Assembly (NCBI GenBank): GCA_028909515.1
Contig: GCA_028909515.1_4811.1
Length of the DNA stretch: 64,000 bases
From: a phage
Direction: 5' to 3' (one strand)
Shown: positions 8,988 through 22,582 of the stretch, piece after piece
Numbering within the stretch: the stretch's first letter is position 1
Layout of the letters: every line of letters begins with the position of its first letter
The notes under the pieces: generated by a model
The model's database searches: none
The model's input: only the letters and a program-made list of their open reading frames with translations
What the model was told of the DNA's origin: nothing
Translations under genes and position numbers: made by a program

Positions 8988-9254
8988 TTACTCCGCAGAT
9001 GCAGATTTAACTGCAGCAAGAATTTCATCCTTATAAGAAAGACCCTTGATGTCGATGCCATTTTCTTTGGCATAAGACTTCAATTCTGAAACACTCATGG
9101 AATCAAAATCGAGTTTTTGTTCAGTGGCCTTTTCTTCGACCTGCTCTTTGATTTCTGCAACAGGCTCGACTTTCTTGTTGAACATCTCTGATGCGTCTTC
9201 AAATTTTTCGCCAAATTTCATGACGCCATTTGCAAAATGAATTACTTGTGCCAT
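8988..9254 (-). CDS. Hypothetical tail module protein
   Basis: 88 aa acidic ORF. Confidence 0.4.
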   Translation of the reverse strand: MAQVIHFANGVMKFGEKFEDASEMFNKKVEPVAEIKEQVEEKATEQKLDFDSMSVSELKSYAKENGIDIKGLSYKDEILAAVKSASAE

Positions 9255-9610
9255 TATTGATTACTCACCTTTATACGTTCGCCATAAATAGTCACCACTT
9301 CTGCAGTGAATCCAAGGATACCGTTTTGGATGGTGACAGTCAATGAGTCGATTCCGGCAACGTCTGCTTTCTTCAGAATAGCATCTGCAATCGACTTTCG
9401 CGCACCGTCTTCGTCAACGGGCGACTTGAAAACGGTCCCCAAATAATCGACACCGTTTTCTATATCGTACAAGTCTTCACCAAGTCGCATCTGGTGCGCT
9501 GCCTTGATTACTTGCACCATCGCTTTTTCTCCTGAAAGAATATTTAAGTTTCTTCCATCAGGTAGAAAAAGATCATTATTTTCGTTAACTTCAATTGTTA
9601 GAGTTGTCAA
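9254..9610 (-). CDS. Hypothetical tail module protein
   Basis: 118 aa ORF with overlapping start/stop. Confidence 0.4.
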   Translation of the reverse strand: MTTLTIEVNENNDLFLPDGRNLNILSGEKAMVQVIKAAHQMRLGEDLYDIENGVDYLGTVFKSPVDEDGARKSIADAILKKADVAGIDSLTVTIQNGILGFTAEVVTIYGERIKVSNQ

Positions 9611-9936
9611 ATTGCAAACTCCGCTTCAGCAGTGGCCTGGAATTCAGCCAACTCAGATTCTGACATGTAATATAGATTACAGCCGCCAGAGTTAAAACTT
9701 TCATAATCAGGTACGCTGTCGAAAATGAAATTACCGTACCCAATCATAAGATACTTATAAGGCACCATTGGGATACCACCAAAACAGCGCACCCCTTGAA
9801 TCAAAAGTTCACCGTTGCGGTATACGTCGGCGCACATATGCTCGATAGCGGCAAAAATGTGCAACTGCCAATATGCACCGTCAACGTTAAAGCTGATATT
9901 CTGGTTAGGTACGCTGTCAAGTGGTATTTGATACAT
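9607..9936 (-). CDS. Hypothetical tail module protein
   Basis: 109 aa ORF with overlapping start/stop. Confidence 0.4.
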   Translation of the reverse strand: MYQIPLDSVPNQNISFNVDGAYWQLHIFAAIEHMCADVYRNGELLIQGVRCFGGIPMVPYKYLMIGYGNFIFDSVPDYESFNSGGCNLYYMSESELAEFQATAEAEFAI

Positions 9937-10403
9937 TATAAAATCTCTTGGTTGCTCACGCCAGTTTTGACTACGTTCTCAAACTTGAAGCGATATTGAC
10001 GTGTTTTCACACGACCTTGAGACTGGATGCCAGGAATTACTGAACCAGTTGTCAAGGTGCCTTTATTCAGCGTGATAACCATTCCAGAAGGATAAGTCAG
10101 CACAAGTGTGATCACGTCTTTTGCGGAGTTCTTACGCTTGCCTACGCGGTTTGCAGCCGCGAGAACGTCCAAGTTGACATCACTTTCAGAAGTAGGGATG
10201 ATGTTCACGCCTACTTCAAGCGGGTTTGCACGGTTCCATACTACCAAGTCACCGTTAAGGCCCATTGCGGCCTCAGAGATTTGCAGGTCCGGCGCGTCAA
10301 TCGGATCAGCATCATCTGCAAAATCAGAAAGAGTCACACCATTCGGAAAAGTGTTTGATGCTACCAAACGAATCGAAGCGCCAAAACCGGAAACGTTAAT
10401 CAT
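9936..10403 (-). CDS. Tail tube protein
   Basis: 155 aa ORF directly downstream of the sheath-like gene. Paralog of the 8488-8985 product. Confidence 0.5.
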   Translation of the reverse strand: MINVSGFGASIRLVASNTFPNGVTLSDFADDADPIDAPDLQISEAAMGLNGDLVVWNRANPLEVGVNIIPTSESDVNLDVLAAANRVGKRKNSAKDVITLVLTYPSGMVITLNKGTLTTGSVIPGIQSQGRVKTRQYRFKFENVVKTGVSNQEIL

Positions 10404-10450
10404 TACAGATTCCTCTCAGAGAGATGGCCGCCAGTTACGGCGGCAATTAT

Positions 10451-11989
10451 TTAAATAAGAACGTCACGACCTTCAACGCGACGCACAGCATCATCTTTAG
10501 AGTAGATTAGCGTGTATGTTGCATAGTATTCGGTGCGGTTATCGGAAGTGGTTTCAGTGTCAAAATCGACAGTCAACCAATAGCCGATAGTCTCAACCTG
10601 CCGCCAAGCAGTGTTGTCACCGGAAGTTTGCGTGATGTACTGTTTCTGGATTTCCGTCAGCGCCTTACCGACAGAGATGGTGCCGTTAACCTTCGCGTTG
10701 TCAACAGCAACTTGAATCATGGCTTGTACAGTCGCTTTGCCTTCTTCGTTCGCAGGCACGCGACCAAGATTCAAGAACATGCTGAACAGCTGAGAAGTGA
10801 TAGCAGATTTAAGCCACATCTCGTTGGCATAAGTGTTCATGTCAACTGCTGCGGTAGACCCGCCCATCAGAACGCCACGCTGGAAGAAGGCGAGCGTTTG
10901 ACCAGCTTGCTGAGTAGCGCCGATATAGTTTGCACGGTTTTGATCAGCAGTATCTGCGCGTGAATCAGTCGATACAGTAACATTTCGAGTGTCAAACTGA
11001 TAATACATGTAGTTTTGAGTTGCGTTTACAGTATTATAGTTTGTCGCTGCGAGAATTTCAGCAGGTGCCTGGTCGATGTAATCATTCGCAAGGTTGGTTG
11101 CACGGATCATCATGCCAACGCCTGAGTAACCTTTCAGCGCGGTATAGTATGAGCCGATGTTGGCGAATGCAGTCGAGAACAGATACATGTACATATTGTT
11201 CTGCGAGTGAGTCCAAGCTGCAACAGCTGTGATTTCTTCCAGCGTTCGGTCTGCTCCAGCGAAAAGGAATGAGCCAAAGTTGTTGGAAATCTCTACAGAT
11301 GCCGCGATGGCTTCTACCGGACTTGCTACACCCTGACCAGCGACCGTAACGGTGCCAGTAGTCGTCCAACCAAGCGCCTGAGATGGGTCTGTCGGTTGAC
11401 CTGTTACGTTAATCGAAAGGTTTCCAGCGCCAGCGGTCGACGGGGCGGCTTCCAAAGTGAACTGCTGGGTGTTGGCATTCCAATACACTTCTGCATCAGC
11501 AAGTGCAGGCACCGACGTGCCACCTTCTGCTGCAAACTTGGTGTTGATTGCCGTTTCCAAAAGTTCCGCTACATTGGCAAGGCTTGTTGCCGCTGAAAGG
11601 TTGATGGCGTCAGTCAGGTAATCTGTGCCGTCATAAGTAATACTTAAGATAGCGCCAGTGAATGCCTGAAAAGTAGCAAGTGTTTTAGGCTCAGTATCGC
11701 CGATAACCATTGCAGGAATCGCCGTGGATACAACGCGAGAAAAGCTGATTGAATCAGGCGAGTTGATTTGCTTGCTGATGAATCCAAAATACAGTGCTGC
11801 GCGCTTGTATTCTTCGGAAGAAAAACCGAAATATGATCCAACGGCATCAGCAGTTGAAAATTCTGCTACAATGCCTGGCGGCAGAACTGTATTGGAAGTC
11901 ATGATGCGAAGCGACAGTTTGCGAACTGCAACAGCCGCGCCTGCTCCGACCCCTGATACAATTTTAATATAACGAGATTGACTGATCAC
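10451..11989 (-). CDS. Tail sheath-like protein
   Basis: 512 aa ORF immediately upstream of the tube gene. Size and order fit a contractile tail; no motif verified. Confidence 0.45.
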   Translation of the reverse strand: MISQSRYIKIVSGVGAGAAVAVRKLSLRIMTSNTVLPPGIVAEFSTADAVGSYFGFSSEEYKRAALYFGFISKQINSPDSISFSRVVSTAIPAMVIGDTEPKTLATFQAFTGAILSITYDGTDYLTDAINLSAATSLANVAELLETAINTKFAAEGGTSVPALADAEVYWNANTQQFTLEAAPSTAGAGNLSINVTGQPTDPSQALGWTTTGTVTVAGQGVASPVEAIAASVEISNNFGSFLFAGADRTLEEITAVAAWTHSQNNMYMYLFSTAFANIGSYYTALKGYSGVGMMIRATNLANDYIDQAPAEILAATNYNTVNATQNYMYYQFDTRNVTVSTDSRADTADQNRANYIGATQQAGQTLAFFQRGVLMGGSTAAVDMNTYANEMWLKSAITSQLFSMFLNLGRVPANEEGKATVQAMIQVAVDNAKVNGTISVGKALTEIQKQYITQTSGDNTAWRQVETIGYWLTVDFDTETTSDNRTEYYATYTLIYSKDDAVRRVEGRDVLI

Positions 11990-12001
11990 GTCGGTGTCCT
12001 C

Positions 12002-16278: not shown

Positions 16279-17700
16279 TTATTCCCCTTTCAACCAAGCT
16301 TCAAATGCTTCGTCAGTTGCTGCAGAATCCGCAGCGGCCTTTTGTTTTGCGACTACACGCTGTTTTTGACCGTGTTCAACGCCGCGCAGATAGTTATCCA
16401 CCACGTCAAACTCAGCACCATCAACGCACTTCAAGCCTAACTTTTTAGCGCCATATTTCGCTACGGACTTGGAATCCATAGTTGCATGATCAAAGGCACC
16501 AACAACTTTAGACAGGCGCTGGTAGAGGCTATTCTTACGAGCAGAATCAGCGTAGAAAGCAGCAACTGCTGAATCAGATGCCATTGAGTGTTCCCCTTTT
16601 GCTGGACCTGGCGACGCTTTCGCCGCTTTTGTCGGTTTGTCATCTTTTTCGACCGAAGCCCCCTTTACGTTGCTGTTTTGCAGGCCGCTAACCACATCTT
16701 CAGCTTTGTCGCAAGGTGATACATCTTCAGCCTTGACTTCAACTTCTTCTTCGTCTTTGACTTCGGCTTCAACTTCTTCTTCATCACCTACCGCGCCACC
16801 TTTCAGTTTTGCAATAAGCGCTTCGATTTGGCTGATCAATTGCGGAAGTTCGCCGCCAGCGTGAGATTCAGTTTCAACTTCAAACTTCTCTTCACCTTCT
16901 GGGGTTTCTTCTGCTTCTGCCTTGACTTCTGGATCAACCATTACTTCTTCACGATTTTCGGTTGAGTCCTTCTCTTCTGCTTTCACTTCAACTTCATCCT
17001 GATGAGCAGCTTCAGTGCTCTCTTCGTTCAGAAATTGTTCGAGCGCAGGGATCAGTGATTTCAGCTGTTCAACAGCATTATCACGCGCTTTACCTTTTAA
17101 CGGTTTTGGCATGTCTAAATCCTCGTTGGATGGTGTTACAGTCGTCAAACAAAGATGGTCAAAGCAACGACCATCCAGCACCCGTGCACCTGGTACTCGA
17201 CCAACGTCCACGAGAGCAATGTGGTTGCCGCGAAGAGTTGTCTGCACCACTTCATACGGCTGCCCGTCAAACTCTCCAGACTGTATGATGAATTCACAGT
17301 CATAGCCCAAAGACAAGTCAACCTTTCCAGAATCGATGGCCTTCTTCAGACGACGGCTAAACACTTTAAGGTCGCCGCGCATCCATGGCTTGTCATAATA
17401 AACATTGCCAGTCAGAACGCCATCAACGCCATACTCTTCGGGTGCTGTGTTATCCTCATCACCTTCAAATCCAGAAAGCATTTCGTGATTGTCGATGAAA
17501 GGGATATTTTTGAATGAATCTATCGCTTCGGGGTCTTTCACCGCTGACTCAGGGCGATAGACTTTTACGATGCGATTCGGATCACCATCAAGACCAACTT
17601 GACCAGCAGAATAATCAAAAATGCCAAATGACGAAATTGGACAACCCATAATCGTCAAGAATCCATTTTTGTCAATTTCGCGTGCCGTTTGCATTCGCAT
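16279..17700 (-). CDS. Prohead scaffold protein, possibly fused to a protease
   Basis: 473 aa. Globular N-terminal ~200 aa, then a long E/K/A-rich acidic stretch typical of scaffolds. GAGGGTGG site upstream. Confidence 0.45.
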   Translation of the reverse strand: MRMQTAREIDKNGFLTIMGCPISSFGIFDYSAGQVGLDGDPNRIVKVYRPESAVKDPEAIDSFKNIPFIDNHEMLSGFEGDEDNTAPEEYGVDGVLTGNVYYDKPWMRGDLKVFSRRLKKAIDSGKVDLSLGYDCEFIIQSGEFDGQPYEVVQTTLRGNHIALVDVGRVPGARVLDGRCFDHLCLTTVTPSNEDLDMPKPLKGKARDNAVEQLKSLIPALEQFLNEESTEAAHQDEVEVKAEEKDSTENREEVMVDPEVKAEAEETPEGEEKFEVETESHAGGELPQLISQIEALIAKLKGGAVGDEEEVEAEVKDEEEVEVKAEDVSPCDKAEDVVSGLQNSNVKGASVEKDDKPTKAAKASPGPAKGEHSMASDSAVAAFYADSARKNSLYQRLSKVVGAFDHATMDSKSVAKYGAKKLGLKCVDGAEFDVVDNYLRGVEHGQKQRVVAKQKAAADSAATDEAFEAWLKGE

Positions 17701-18263: not shown

Positions 18264-19184
18264 TTAGTTCAGCTTAATTGCGGTGATCTGTCCGTAAACG
18301 GTAGATGTCAACGCGTCGGTGCACTGATAGTTTAAATACACATTACCAGGCGCGGCAAGAGTAATTACTTTTGTTGGGATGTTGCCGCCGAAGCGACCTG
18401 CAGCCCGAATGCCAGCTGACATGGCAAATGCATCATCCGTAATATCTGAATTGCTTGTTGACAATTTGACTGTAATTCCGGTATTCGCTTGAACGCCTGC
18501 TGTCGCGACAGTCAACTGACTTGCTGTTACAAGCCATTTCCCTGCAGGAAGGTTTAAGGTTGCCAGATTGACCAAAGTTGTTGGAGGATTGCTGACGCTA
18601 TTAGTGGCATTCTGGACGGTACTTGCTGCTGCATTAAGCACACCAGACCCATCAATTGATAGAGTTGTACCGACCTTTACGCCGCCTAAAGTAGATGCTG
18701 AGGCAATCGGCAATGAGTATTGGGTGACGCTGATTGTTCCATCGCCTGCGACGCTTATTCCGGTGCCTATTTTGACGCCACCAAGAACGGAGGCTGTTGC
18801 CGCTGGTAACGTGTATTGGTTGCCGCTGGTTTTCACAACTTTGACCGCGACAGCGTTTTTCGACCCTCCAGACTCCATGCCTATAATCACTGCTTCGCCA
18901 AAAGCAATGGTGATTGTTGATGCAGTCAAGCCAGTTTGAACGTCTGTGATGTTCATCTTAGGCACAGACAATGTCAGGTTAGGCTTGCTGGTCGAATCGC
19001 CATCATTGCCAATCATAAAGAATTGACCTACTGAGTTATACCCTGATGCAAGCGGCGGGCTCAGTGGAACAATCAAGTTTTTATCAGAAGTGAATTCTGA
19101 GACAATTGCCAAGCCATTAGCATACACTGCAGGCAAGACTGGAGTTTGTCCAGATAGAGGGAATGTGTTGATTGGTATCGTCAT
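18264..19184 (-). CDS. Fiber-repeat protein inside the head module
   Basis: ORF track gives 18264-19277 from a GTG. ATG at 19184 has a GAGGT site and follows the MuF stop. Two repeats: TLPAATASVLGGVKIGTGISVAGDGTISV and SLPIASASTLGGVKVGTTLSIDGSGVLNA. Confidence 0.5.
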   Translation of the reverse strand: MTIPINTFPLSGQTPVLPAVYANGLAIVSEFTSDKNLIVPLSPPLASGYNSVGQFFMIGNDGDSTSKPNLTLSVPKMNITDVQTGLTASTITIAFGEAVIIGMESGGSKNAVAVKVVKTSGNQYTLPAATASVLGGVKIGTGISVAGDGTISVTQYSLPIASASTLGGVKVGTTLSIDGSGVLNAAASTVQNATNSVSNPPTTLVNLATLNLPAGKWLVTASQLTVATAGVQANTGITVKLSTSNSDITDDAFAMSAGIRAAGRFGGNIPTKVITLAAPGNVYLNYQCTDALTSTVYGQITAIKLN

Positions 19185-19191
19185 AATGACC

Positions 19192-20043
19192 TCAGATAAT
19201 TGGTATTTTCCTGCATTTGCAGTGTATTGCCCATCCAGGAGGACCGATGTCACCCTTTTTGAACTTAAGTTCTCCACCTACTTCCCATAAGCGTTTGTCA
19301 TCAAGCTTGAATCTCATGCCGTCGACGTGCTCATGTGATATTCGCGGCTCTTTGCCTGCTCCTGAATGCGCCCACTCAAATTCCTCAACGCCATTCTGTC
19401 GCATCCTTTCATCACTTAATACGCAATAAAGTTTGCTCGTTTGGTCTTTGGCGATAAGGTCTACGCGTTTTGCAGAGAAGTGTTTTACATTCCTTAGTGC
19501 CGCCTGAATGCCTGACGTGCCTTGTTGCGCTGGGTCTGGCGAAGTCAGCGAAAGCATCACCGCTTCGTACACCCTGTTGTGAATATCTTCGCCAACCTTA
19601 GTCACTAAAGTCGTGTTGAACGTCTCGCTTGTTTTAAGAGTGTTCTCAACGAATTTATTATATGTGGCTTTTGGCGCTTCTATTCCTGCAGATTTAAGAC
19701 TTGCAAATGTAGCAGAAGTGGCACCCTTTTCAACTGACTTGATGAAATCTGCGGCAATCTTTGACCCGACACGGGCGAAAGCCTTTGCCCATTTCAGTTG
19801 CAGTCGCTTCATCAAGGTCTGAAAAGTTGAATCAGCAGAGTCTTGCGCAAAGAACTTTTTAACCTGCTTCTTTTCAAGCCACTCAGCAATTCCTGCTTGA
19901 TAGTCGTCAATCATCGCATAGCAAAGACCTTTCATCTCACGACGATAGGCCATCGCAATAGCATTGGATGGGATTATCGGACTGCCGCGCCCGATTCTAT
20001 CGGGTGAGCGGCGTTCACGTTTTTTCGAAGCTTTAAAAGCCAT
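19192..20043 (-). CDS. MuF-like minor head (head morphogenesis) protein
   Basis: C-terminal motif HEHVDG...PGWAIHCKCRKIP resembles the MuF/SPP1 gp7 family. ATG at 20043 overlaps the portal stop. Confidence 0.6.
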   Translation of the reverse strand: MAFKASKKRERRSPDRIGRGSPIIPSNAIAMAYRREMKGLCYAMIDDYQAGIAEWLEKKQVKKFFAQDSADSTFQTLMKRLQLKWAKAFARVGSKIAADFIKSVEKGATSATFASLKSAGIEAPKATYNKFVENTLKTSETFNTTLVTKVGEDIHNRVYEAVMLSLTSPDPAQQGTSGIQAALRNVKHFSAKRVDLIAKDQTSKLYCVLSDERMRQNGVEEFEWAHSGAGKEPRISHEHVDGMRFKLDDKRLWEVGGELKFKKGDIGPPGWAIHCKCRKIPII

Positions 20044-20044
20044 A

Positions 20045-22420
20045 TCAACCTTGCTTCGGTGAATTAGTAGGATTATTGAGTGCTCCATATGCTTGAGAGC
20101 AATCACCCTTCAACCACTCCTTGAATGAGTTTACATCCAATTCGTGAATTGAGTCGAAGCCGTTCCAACCGTTACCAAATGATGCTTGATAAGCTTCTTT
20201 CGCTTCTTCTGCTGAATCAAATCCAAGCATACACTTGTGTTCATCAAATTCGCCAGAATAATTATCATTTTGGTTAATGATGAATACTTTAGGCGACTTC
20301 ATATTTGGCCCAACAAAGCAGTCGACTTCATCACCATCAGCACCCTTGGTGCCTTTGATGAATCCGTAGTGGTGCGGCATCTTAACTGCCCATTCACCAT
20401 CAAGGCTGTTTCCCCTACGAATGCTGTTGCGAGGATTCTCAATACCAAGAATCATCCCGTGCAACTTCATCTTAGGTAGCGATGCGGCATCCATCTTCCC
20501 TACGTTGTGTCGCAAGTTGACGACATTTCCTTTTACGCTTGGAAGCGTGGACGGTTGCACCGACCTTGCATCTTTTTGAGGGTCAAAATCCACATCCTGA
20601 CCTTCTTTAAGGTAATAGTCAGCAATACCCTCCAGACCTTCTTTCAGTTGCGTTAGGACATCAACGTGATGGCTTGATTCATCATCGGTATCATCCATGT
20701 TAATCTCAACTGGTGCTCTGTCAGGGTTTTCTGCCAACTCACCACGCGCGGCACCTTCCGGCATAATACCAGTTTCGCTGTAGAACTGGCCGCCCATCTT
20801 GACAACGTCAGCCTTAGCCTGTTCAATATCGGCCTTGCCTTGCAGAACTTCACCAGCAGACTTGCCAAGCAACGCCATATTCTCTGGAGACATCCCTGGG
20901 GTTTCTTCTGCCGCGTCTTCCGGCAAACGGTTGTAGCCACTGTTTTTGTCGTCCTTGATGCGGTCGCGCTCTTCATCAGGGGAGATGACGCCAGCATCAA
21001 TGAGAGTCTTGCCAGTGTTCGCTCGTTTGTCGTTAATCTCTGCAAGCTGAGTAGCAGTAAGTGAACCAACTGGCTCCCATGCCACTTTAACGTCGACTTC
21101 AACACCTTCAGATTTCAAAAGGATTTTATAGTGACGGTCAAGAATCTTCGTCAAATCGTGCTGCTGACAAGTTTCCAATTCTTCGTGATAGCTGACCATT
21201 TCGAACTCACCAGTGGCGTTAAAGCCTTTAGGTGAAGTCCCTAACAGTTTTGTCGACGGAACTTTTGCGATTGCGGCCACCAACTGGTACTGGTTCATGA
21301 TGATGCTGTCGAAGTCTGACAAGTTGATGTCAAACTGGTCCATCTCTTCTTTCTGACCAAGCACTTTTACCGCATAGTTGTCGCGGTACTTAATCCACAT
21401 CATCAAACGTTCGGCAAACGACCGCTCATTGGCAATCGCCTTGTCAACGTCGGTCCGCAGCGTGGTTGTACGCTTAGACATCGCCAGCAATGGCGCTTCG
21501 TTAGCGGTACGTTCAGCGGCATAGATACGTTCATAAATCTGCTGAGTCAGAGGAATGCCGCCGTATATATAAGTCGGCTTGAGAATATCAGCTGGCTCAT
21601 CGTTGCGCAAGATGATTAGGTGGCTGCGATGATAACGCTGTCCACTGATCACCCAGTATTCTGGATCATAGAAATGCTGTGACGCAGGGTCTGCAGTGTT
21701 TTCAGACGTCAAGAATGGCATCATCCAATAAGGGTCAACCTGAATGATTCCCTTATAAGACCCCTTTGTCACACCATCGATGTTAAAAGGTTTGCTATAA
21801 TATTCTGGGTCATCGCTGCGCACATCAAATATGATGACACGGATGCCAAAAATATTCTTGAATCGTTCGGCTTCAACTAAGTGCTCTTTGATGTTAAATT
21901 CTTTATCAATTTGCTTCAGGCGTTCGCTTGCCTGCACAGACAATTCTGATTCAGAGCTTGATTTTACTTCCCAACCTTTACGTACTGCATCGCGGCCTAC
22001 CATTGAGCAAGCCTTATTCACCAGCCAGTGCTGCGCGATAATTGCGCAAGCTTGATAGCCGATGAATGATTGTGACAAGTACCAGTTTTGCAACTGAATA
22101 GGGACTGTGTATGGATTCACCTGCCCTTCTGAACTGATGTTCTTCAAAGCATTATCCATAACTTTTTTGGATACGGTTGCTGAATCTACTGAGCGACCTT
22201 TGATGATTGCAACACCGTCTCCGTTGATATCAGGCTCATATAAAGGGAAGTCATCAACCGTTTTAAAGGTCGGTCGATTGCTTTCAGTCTTTTCCCAGCG
22301 TTGACCGCTGCCGCGCCTTTCAAGGCGTTCAAACGGTGCCAATGGGTCGCCTGGCGGCATCTCCGCTGGTTCGGCTTCTGGTTGCGTCTTCTCCCAGAGT
22401 TTTATGCCAAGAATTTTCAT
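20045..22420 (-). CDS. Portal protein with a pyrophosphatase-like C-terminal domain
   Basis: Large ORF between terminase and the MuF-like gene. ATG at 22420 with AGGTGG upstream (track gives a TTG at 22453). C-terminus contains HHYGFIKGTKGADGDEVDCFVGP. Confidence 0.6.
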   Translation of the reverse strand: MKILGIKLWEKTQPEAEPAEMPPGDPLAPFERLERRGSGQRWEKTESNRPTFKTVDDFPLYEPDINGDGVAIIKGRSVDSATVSKKVMDNALKNISSEGQVNPYTVPIQLQNWYLSQSFIGYQACAIIAQHWLVNKACSMVGRDAVRKGWEVKSSSESELSVQASERLKQIDKEFNIKEHLVEAERFKNIFGIRVIIFDVRSDDPEYYSKPFNIDGVTKGSYKGIIQVDPYWMMPFLTSENTADPASQHFYDPEYWVISGQRYHRSHLIILRNDEPADILKPTYIYGGIPLTQQIYERIYAAERTANEAPLLAMSKRTTTLRTDVDKAIANERSFAERLMMWIKYRDNYAVKVLGQKEEMDQFDINLSDFDSIIMNQYQLVAAIAKVPSTKLLGTSPKGFNATGEFEMVSYHEELETCQQHDLTKILDRHYKILLKSEGVEVDVKVAWEPVGSLTATQLAEINDKRANTGKTLIDAGVISPDEERDRIKDDKNSGYNRLPEDAAEETPGMSPENMALLGKSAGEVLQGKADIEQAKADVVKMGGQFYSETGIMPEGAARGELAENPDRAPVEINMDDTDDESSHHVDVLTQLKEGLEGIADYYLKEGQDVDFDPQKDARSVQPSTLPSVKGNVVNLRHNVGKMDAASLPKMKLHGMILGIENPRNSIRRGNSLDGEWAVKMPHHYGFIKGTKGADGDEVDCFVGPNMKSPKVFIINQNDNYSGEFDEHKCMLGFDSAEEAKEAYQASFGNGWNGFDSIHELDVNSFKEWLKGDCSQAYGALNNPTNSPKQG

Positions 22421-22582
22421 TGTTAACGCCACCTGACAGTGAAAGGGAATCAATCTATATTATAAATATTCATGTGTTTGTAAGCAAATGATATGTATAG
22501 TAATCATAAATAGTTCATAAAATATTTTGCTTTTGTATCATTTTGAGTTATATTTTAGTTAACCAAACGAAAGGAGATTGAA

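Follow-up and report, generated by a model that had tools for sequence, protein, structure and literature searches.

A pyrophosphatase-like InPase domain fused to the portal protein of an Escherichia coli Wifcevirus phage and its possible role as a capsid-carried hydrolase

The portal-InPase gene and its product

The phage contig GCA_028909515.1_4811.1 (NCBI GenBank assembly GCA_028909515.1), analyzed here as a single stretch of 64,000 nucleotides (the window), carries on its minus strand a portal gene (20045..22420) whose product of 791 amino acids (aa) ends in a domain of the InPase family (PF18823), which resembles the family I inorganic pyrophosphatases (PPases). The gene closes with a TGA stop at 20047-20045. 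The source phage is an E. coli Wifcevirus, a PB1-like myophage: the portal gene is 96.6% identical at the nucleotide level to Wifcevirus genes annotated as portal or 'minor head protein', and the Wifcevirus relatives matched at DNA level include vB_EcoM_SP13, F13, vB_Eco4M-7, BASEL Bas98-101, Mansfield and ECML-117. The genus Wifcevirus comprises the E. coli relatives of the PB1-like Pseudomonas phages (Pbunavirus). In some GenBank relatives the portal gene goes under the name 'hypothetical protein' or 'minor head protein' instead of portal.

The mechanically listed open reading frame (ORF) is slightly longer (20045..22453, 802 aa), beginning at a TTG codon at 22453, 11 codons upstream of the ATG at 22420. 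This ATG is almost certainly the true start, since the curated Mansfield ortholog has 791 aa and an annotated ribosome-binding site (RBS), and the vB_Eco4M-7 protein identified by mass spectrometry (MS) likewise has 791 aa (88.7 kDa). The first MS peptide of the vB_Eco4M-7 product lies at residues 12-32. Residue numbers below refer to the 791-aa protein; those of the 802-aa translation are higher by 11, and those of the 171-aa fragment used for alignments are lower by 620.

Judged from its homologs and its neighborhood, the N-terminal two thirds of the ORF can be assigned to a true portal. The portal body (21017..22057, minus strand) belongs to the family Phage_portal_3 (PF06381, E 4.5e-88) and in phmmer searches matched two portals with cryo-EM structures, those of E217 (8fvh, E 3.8e-189) and Pa193 (gp19, 9b41, E 3e-250), the latter alignment extending through the InPase domain. 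Family membership, solved orthologs and the adjoining terminase, MuF and protease genes all point to a portal of the PB1/E217 type. PHROG 4660 spans the entire length of the portal-InPase protein, so the fusion as a whole counts as an established family of phage proteins. The NCBIfam match gives a name to the portal portion alone.

The portal barrel and the InPase domain are joined by an acidic linker (20477..20830, minus strand; approximately residues 531-648, the N-terminal boundary with the barrel being approximate) with an isoelectric point of 4.4. When compared with orthologs from across the supergroup (PB1, Luteibacter Pluto, Burkholderia Maja, Xylella MATE2 and Vibrio JSF39), the linker varies in length through insertions and deletions (~120-190 residues) and is only 13-26% identical, against 58-65% for the portal body and 44-60% for the InPase domain. 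Relative to Mansfield, at dS ~0.5, the portal body, linker and InPase domain have ratios of nonsynonymous to synonymous substitution rates (dN/dS) of 0.006, 0.019 and 0.012, respectively. Some elements recur within the linker, i.e., an (E)ETPGxSPEN(L/M)A motif at its start, an amphipathic helix ~50 residues upstream of the InPase domain (VDVLTQLKEGLEGIADYYL here, LRNLLSDLLSKLEAL in PB1) and a PSxxG motif. These three elements may be docking or oligomerisation sites.

Fold and active-site residues of the InPase domain

The initial annotation had noticed a pyrophosphatase-like motif in the C-terminal part of the portal ORF, at 20048-20500, and had read it as a pyrophosphatase fold fused to a portal. 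The flagged peptide, HHYGFIKGTKGADGDEVDCFVGP (20306-20374, minus strand), is placed 109 residues before the C-terminus, and the InPase domain itself (20075..20476, minus strand) falls inside the interval given. The E. coli motif quoted there for comparison agrees with the sequence of E. coli K-12 Ppa. Profile search and structure prediction of the C-terminus both bear out the proposed fusion. Against a cut-off of 26.8 bits, the PF18823 model reaches 156.5 (E 4.4e-46) and spans residues 660-782 in the 802-aa numbering, with model positions 12-135 of 135 covered. The predicted structure is a trimmed version of the family I PPase, an OB-type beta-barrel with two helices; PPases are its nearest structural neighbours, and all structural matches of the domain are family I PPases. 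HHalign comparison of the family profile with E. coli PPase gave a probability of 90-92%. A hairpin at fragment residues 47-60 is retained in the AF2 model, shortened by ~10 residues relative to E. coli PPase. We conclude that the C-terminal ~135 aa are a pyrophosphatase-superfamily fold.

An exhaustive profile search for the family recovered 12,225 clusters at 50% identity, 9,094 of them with E <= 1e-30, and conservation was computed on 158 domains, which were taken from the top 150 proteins and represent clusters at no more than 50% identity. Eleven positions are conserved at 96-100%, and the conserved residue is present here at every one (E661, R668, Y685, G686, D695, D700, Q717, D726, E727, K729 and Y744). 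With Asp and Glu counted together, position 697 falls in the same range: Asp, as here, occupies it in 90% of the 158 domains and Glu in another 9%. The invariant polar set of PF18823 (E, R, Y, DxDxxD, Q, DE-x-K, Y) is thus complete in the window protein.

Many of these residues can be placed on the E. coli enzyme. E661, in the IENP motif (20432..20443, minus strand), aligns with E20 in HHalign and is Glu in 98% of the domains. Within YGFIKGTKGADGDEVD (20321..20368, minus strand), Y685 corresponds to Y55, and D695, D697 and D700 correspond to D65, D67 and D70 of the metal and nucleophile site; these placements come from both HMMER and HHalign alignments to PPases, with conservation of 98-100%. 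The FDEHK motif (20234..20248, minus strand) supplies D726/E727 and K729 as the counterpart of the D102-x-K104 strand. For this motif the HMMER profile alignment to the H. pylori PPase 1ygz was used, as HHalign at lower stringency misplaces the DE-x-K strand; D, E and K are 99-100% conserved, and the register at D102 is uncertain by one residue (D726 or E727). R668 aligns with K29 and is Arg in 99% of the family, while D719 aligns with D97 and is D or N in the family. Every sequence that the homolog search and genome scan for classical PPases gave was 79% or more identical to E. coli Ppa, and because of this narrow profile HHalign is reliable only for fragment residues 37-99. Collectively, each carboxylate of the PPase metal and nucleophile site (E20, D65, D67, D70, D97, D102) has a counterpart here (E661, D695, D697, D700, D719, D726/E727). 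The counterparts of Y55 and K104 are kept as well, and that of Y141 probably is.

Presence of the domain in virions

Peptide-level MS data from CsCl-gradient-purified vB_Eco4M-7 and ECML-117 are available as published supplements (PMC7048862), and these two phages are 92-96% identical to the one studied here. Seven of the eight predicted tryptic peptides of the gp36 InPase domain were identified, including both that carry catalytic motifs, GADGDEVDCFVGPNMK (DxDxxD motif region) and VFIINQNDNYSGEFDEHK (FDEHK region). Further InPase peptides from virions are MPHHYGFIK, LHGMILGIENPR and the C-terminal GDCSQAYGALNNPTNSPK (residues 772-789), and the same InPase peptides were found for ECML-117. When the 559 gp36 spectra are placed on the window protein, residues 649-791 account for 439 of them, residues 12-53 for 40, the portal body for 30 and the linker for 50. 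This skew toward the InPase domain may reflect regional digestibility, and bottom-up MS reads a domain attached to the portal and a cleaved one alike. Since MS peptides span the domain in CsCl-purified particles, the InPase domain is a component of purified virions of close relatives; the virion mass spectrometry that the initial annotation had called for is in this sense already published for two phages. The association of PF18823 with virions is also seen in its fusion to a portal and in its kin within polyvalent proteins.

The same data bear on the integrity of the gene. That the finding is an artefact, either a chance motif or two genes misread as one, is exceedingly improbable and was rejected on the strength of the PF18823 match, the reading frame and the MS product. 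The frame is continuous in all orthologs, including those of identity as low as 44-65%, and the MS peptides, drawn from all parts of one 791-aa product (N-terminus, body, linker and C-terminal domain), show that the gene is a single one. A separate InPase protein made from an internal translation start was likewise rejected: no ATG with a credible Shine-Dalgarno sequence was found in residues 560-670, and the Met positions in this interval are not conserved in PB1. The match is significant and the ORF is one gene, contrary to what the initial annotation had named as grounds for abandoning its reading.

Two recent near-atomic virion structures are available for orthologs. The maps of Pa193 (PMC11456595) and E217 (PMC10329688) contain the portal modelled from residue 94/97 to 528 of 765. 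Residues 529-765, which the proteins do contain, are without density, and the pyrophosphatase-like domain is not mentioned in either report (PMC11456595; PMC10329688). The portal barrel is reported to unfold after DNA ejection (PMC11456595; PMC10329688).

Distribution and origin of the fusion

The portal-InPase fusion is found in Pbunavirus, Wifcevirus and their allies; hundreds of sequenced phages carry it. Portals of 40-kb relatives end just after the barrel (466 aa in Plectonema Lbo240-yong2, 491 aa in Bordetella IFTN3), and these phages share the portal-MuF-protease gene order. The linker and InPase domain thus represent an addition confined to the PB1-like phages of 63-72 kb. The top genera of InPase matches do not include those of the more distant portal homologs, i.e., of Acinetobacter phages and the majority of Xanthomonas and Burkholderia phages. 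In the metagenomic protein P0209 (742 aa), the InPase domain sits at the C-terminus of a different portal family (PF04860, Phage_portal), so that the portal-InPase fusion must have arisen independently at least twice.

Most PF18823 clusters are embedded in proteins of 1,000-6,650 aa, and the domain is found in virion structural, DarB-like (phrog_10089), MuF-context and giant polyvalent proteins. Two InPase domains occur in 8 of the 150 top representatives. Existing names vary: matches in BFVD go by names such as 'Type I restriction enzyme' or 'Mega protein', relatives in UniProt are called 'Inorganic pyrophosphatase domain-containing protein', and the ortholog of Luteibacter phage Pluto is annotated 'inorganic pyrophosphatase' in GenBank. 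A second metagenomic protein, P0151 (767 aa), consists of a LigD 3'-phosphoesterase and an ATP-dependent DNA ligase followed by two tandem InPase domains, one of which passes the threshold of the classical PPase model PF00719. This fusion with an enzyme that releases pyrophosphate (PPi) is the best hint that some members of the family truly hydrolyse PPi.

Neighbouring head genes

Downstream of the portal gene lies a MuF-like head morphogenesis or minor capsid gene (19192..20043, minus strand; PF04233 Phage_Mu_F, phrog_324). The portal TGA (20047-20045) and the MuF-like ATG (20043-20041) are separated by a single base. The portal-MuF order is common to all relatives, and the junction is tight, overlapping or not, in PB1, Pluto, Maja and MATE2, which would fit translational coupling between these head proteins.

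The prohead maturation protease gene (16279..17700, minus strand; PF09979, phrog_3778) corresponds to the gene annotated as capsid maturation protease in Mansfield, and its product is the candidate enzyme for any processing of the portal tail. DUF2213 occupies residues 7-174 of the protease, and the C-terminal half of ~300 aa is extremely acidic, rich in Glu, Val and Lys, and scaffold-like. In purified virions its ortholog vB_Eco4M-7_40 is abundant, with 28 peptides and 58% coverage. Together these features suggest that protease and scaffold are fused and remain in the head.

Between the MuF-like gene and the protease lies an ORF of 337 aa (18264-19277, minus strand) with an internal duplication (YTLPAATASVLGGVKIGTG / YSLPIASASTLGGVKVGTT). 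Its match to PF11133, the phi29 head fiber family, is weak but exceeds the threshold of 24.6 bits (27.8 bits), and its ortholog vB_Eco4M-7_38 is among the virion proteins best covered by MS (72.9% coverage). This ORF, now annotated as hypothetical, may encode a head fibre or decoration protein.

Possible function of the InPase domain

The conserved residues suggest that the domain is probably an enzyme. The reading we favor, with a confidence just above even, is that of a capsid-carried, Mg2+-dependent phosphoanhydride hydrolase, tethered to the portal in 12 copies and acting at the very start of infection. The C-terminus of the portal, pointing into the head, is extended by a flexible acidic tether of ~120 aa and the 135-aa InPase domain. 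With 12 portal subunits, each virion would hold 12 InPase copies, disordered in the lumen beside the portal barrel and the last-packaged end of the DNA; the placement in the head lumen follows from the inward-pointing portal C-termini that the Pa193 and E217 structures imply. The carboxylates of DxDxxD and DE would hold two metals that activate a water, and Arg, Lys and Tyr would hold the attacked phosphate, as in canonical family I chemistry. The phosphoanhydride cleaved could be PPi itself or the diphosphate of a nucleotide-like compound. As DNA leaves and the portal barrel unfolds, the domain would be exposed or released. Delivery at the onset of infection is favored because InPase in phages is always attached to head-internal proteins, and an enzyme-in-capsid role for InPase has already been proposed by Iyer et al. 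(PMC5512222).

Several points weigh against this reading. The literature searched contained neither a measured enzymatic activity for any PF18823 member nor biochemical or genetic work on the family or on pyrophosphatases fused to portals. The classical model PF00719 stays below its cut-off of 23.5 bits, with 18.2 bits for the whole protein and 21.1 for the domain alone, and its match is confined to the core motif (model positions 32-57). In the substrate pocket, E. coli E31 aligns with a conserved Gly, R43 falls inside a five-residue deletion (or at a non-conserved position under an alternative ungapped alignment), and K142 has no corresponding Lys, which leaves the full set of PPi-binding residues (K29, R43, Y55, K104, Y141, K142, E31) incomplete. 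In the PPase of A. baumannii (numbering +1), PPi and Mg are bound by K30, R44, Y56, D71, D98, D103, K105, Y142 and K143, and either K30R or K143R alone abolishes activity (PMC6770254). With regard to delivery, a tether of ~120 aa cannot span the tail, which is reported to be ~1300 A long in the related phage Pa193 (PMC11456595), and entry into the cell therefore needs cleavage. No sign of such cleavage was found: T4-type [LI]xE prohead-protease motifs were considered as a release signal and rejected, as they are not enriched in the linkers (3 against 1.5 expected, P 0.17) and the MATE2 linker has none. Moreover, if the domain were directed at bulk PPi, its 12 copies would contribute little beside the abundant PPase of the host.

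The initial annotation had asked whether the metal-binding residues are complete. The metal carboxylates and one Lys are in place, but the equivalents of E31, R43 and K142 are missing and K29 is replaced by Arg. The site is thus intact, and strongly selected, in its metal and nucleophile half and remodelled in its phosphate-binding half, which argues for an active hydrolase while PPi as its substrate is not assured. In view of the change of K29 to Arg, the loss of R43 and K142 and the sub-threshold PF00719 score, the domain is best described, at the level of sequence, as a minimal, diverged homolog of family I PPase with a remodelled pocket.

What this half-intact site does in the phage can be read in several ways. 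A genuine PPase, removing PPi locally and thereby pulling reactions that release it, such as transcription, replication or ligation, on incoming or replicating phage DNA, is possible, though on the unlikely side. It would fit the retained metal and nucleophile site, and the DGDEVDC motif matches the classical PPase signature. P0151, in which two InPase domains are joined to a PPi-releasing ligase and one passes PF00719, points the same way, the loss of R43 together with Arg in place of K29 could be a compensating swap, and the option has been put forward before (PMC5512222). However, the pocket substitutions that inactivate classical PPases (K29R and K142R equivalents, each by itself), the missing counterparts of R43, K142 and E31, the PF00719 scores of 18-21 bits and the small number of twelve molecules per infection relative to the host enzyme all speak against it. 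The same remodelled pocket next to a kept catalytic metal site would suit a capsid-delivered counter-defence enzyme whose substrate is not PPi but a nucleotide-derived immune signal or alarmone that the host makes upon infection. We consider this doubtful, although the family sits mostly in giant polyvalent proteins (up to 6650 aa) beside antirestriction-type modules such as DarB-like phrog_10089, associations with NUDIX, GNAT and TmrB and the same hypothesis have been published (PMC5512222), and Wifcevirus phages are restricted by the resident immunity of E. coli K-12. Delivery into the cell would moreover need release from the portal. PADLOC models of defence systems gave no match, which says little about anti-defence. 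In its strongest form, in which released copies follow the DNA into the cell and destroy the nucleotide-derived host signal or alarmone within the first seconds, so that the domain would not be a PPase in function, the idea is less probable still; release could then occur by prohead-protease cleavage or barrel unfolding. If it were true, a kept two-metal centre with a remodelled leaving-group pocket (K29 to Arg, no R43 or K142) would be the signature of a change of substrate.

Other readings place the activity elsewhere or do without it. The domain may act late, in the infected cell or the procapsid, and aid DNA synthesis or assembly, its presence in virions being a by-product. The portal is a late and fairly abundant protein, fusion to it guarantees co-expression, and the domain is disordered and apparently functionless in the maps of mature virions. 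Against this, InPase recurs on head-packaged proteins (two portal families, virion structural and polyvalent proteins), which favors delivery, and 40-kb relatives with the same head module do without the domain. Furthermore, terminases release phosphate, not PPi, when packaging DNA. We therefore regard late action as improbable. Lower again in probability is a non-catalytic structural module descended from a pyrophosphatase and serving as a spacer, a binder of the DNA end or of metal, or an assembly aid. The loss of several classical substrate-binding residues and the position of the domain, which the structures would put beside the DNA end near the portal barrel, agree with such a role. Yet all metal carboxylates and the Lys, Arg and Tyr are 96-100% conserved across ~9000-12000 clusters and in unrelated contexts, which is the pattern of an active site rather than a scaffold, and the dN/dS of 0.012 also tells against it.

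Comparison with known systems

The sequence finding is correct and is already known as annotation, in the form of the Pfam model, the UniProt names and the fusion published in 2017. The InPase family and the portal fusion BcepF1.124 of Burkholderia virus BcepF1 were described by Iyer, Burroughs, Anand, de Souza and Aravind (PMC5512222). The initial annotation had called a pyrophosphatase fold on a portal unusual; this does not hold, since the module has been on record since 2017 (PMC5512222) and sequenced phages carry it by the hundreds. The residual interest lies in a very large (~12,000 clusters at 50% identity) and strongly conserved virion-borne family in widely used therapeutic phages, Pbunavirus ranking with those most often chosen for the personalised treatment of P. 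aeruginosa infections, and in the last ~240 portal residues, enzyme-like domain included, that the two virion structures pass over. Presence in virions, purifying selection, an intact metal site and an altered pocket together make a simple biochemical or genetic test worthwhile. The genetics are practical, as BASEL Wifcevirus isolates grow on E. coli K-12 derivatives.

The portal-InPase protein shares its Pfam family, architecture and phage supergroup with BcepF1.124 and is its ortholog in a genus of E. coli phages, differing from it in nothing essential; the BcepF1-like Maja ortholog has identities to the window protein of 65% (portal body) and 60% (InPase domain). InPase was described as lacking the hairpin between the first two core strands (PMC5512222), whereas the AF2 model of our domain keeps a shortened one. 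Compared with E. coli Ppa (PF00719), the fold and the order of secondary-structure elements are the same, conserved counterparts exist for E20, Y55, D65, D67, D70, D102 and K104, and the counterpart of D97 is present here, as probably is that of Y141. The gp19 portals of E217 (8fvh) and Pa193 (9b41) are full-length orthologs including the InPase domain, with the same gene order of portal, MuF and protease, and differ in the sequence and length of the linker. For T4 Alt and the T4 internal proteins injection has been demonstrated, whereas the portal-anchored InPase domain would need proteolytic release. With these proteins, as with MuF-fused toxins and P1 DarB, it nevertheless has in common that an enzyme domain is carried in the head by a head-assembly protein (PMC5512222).

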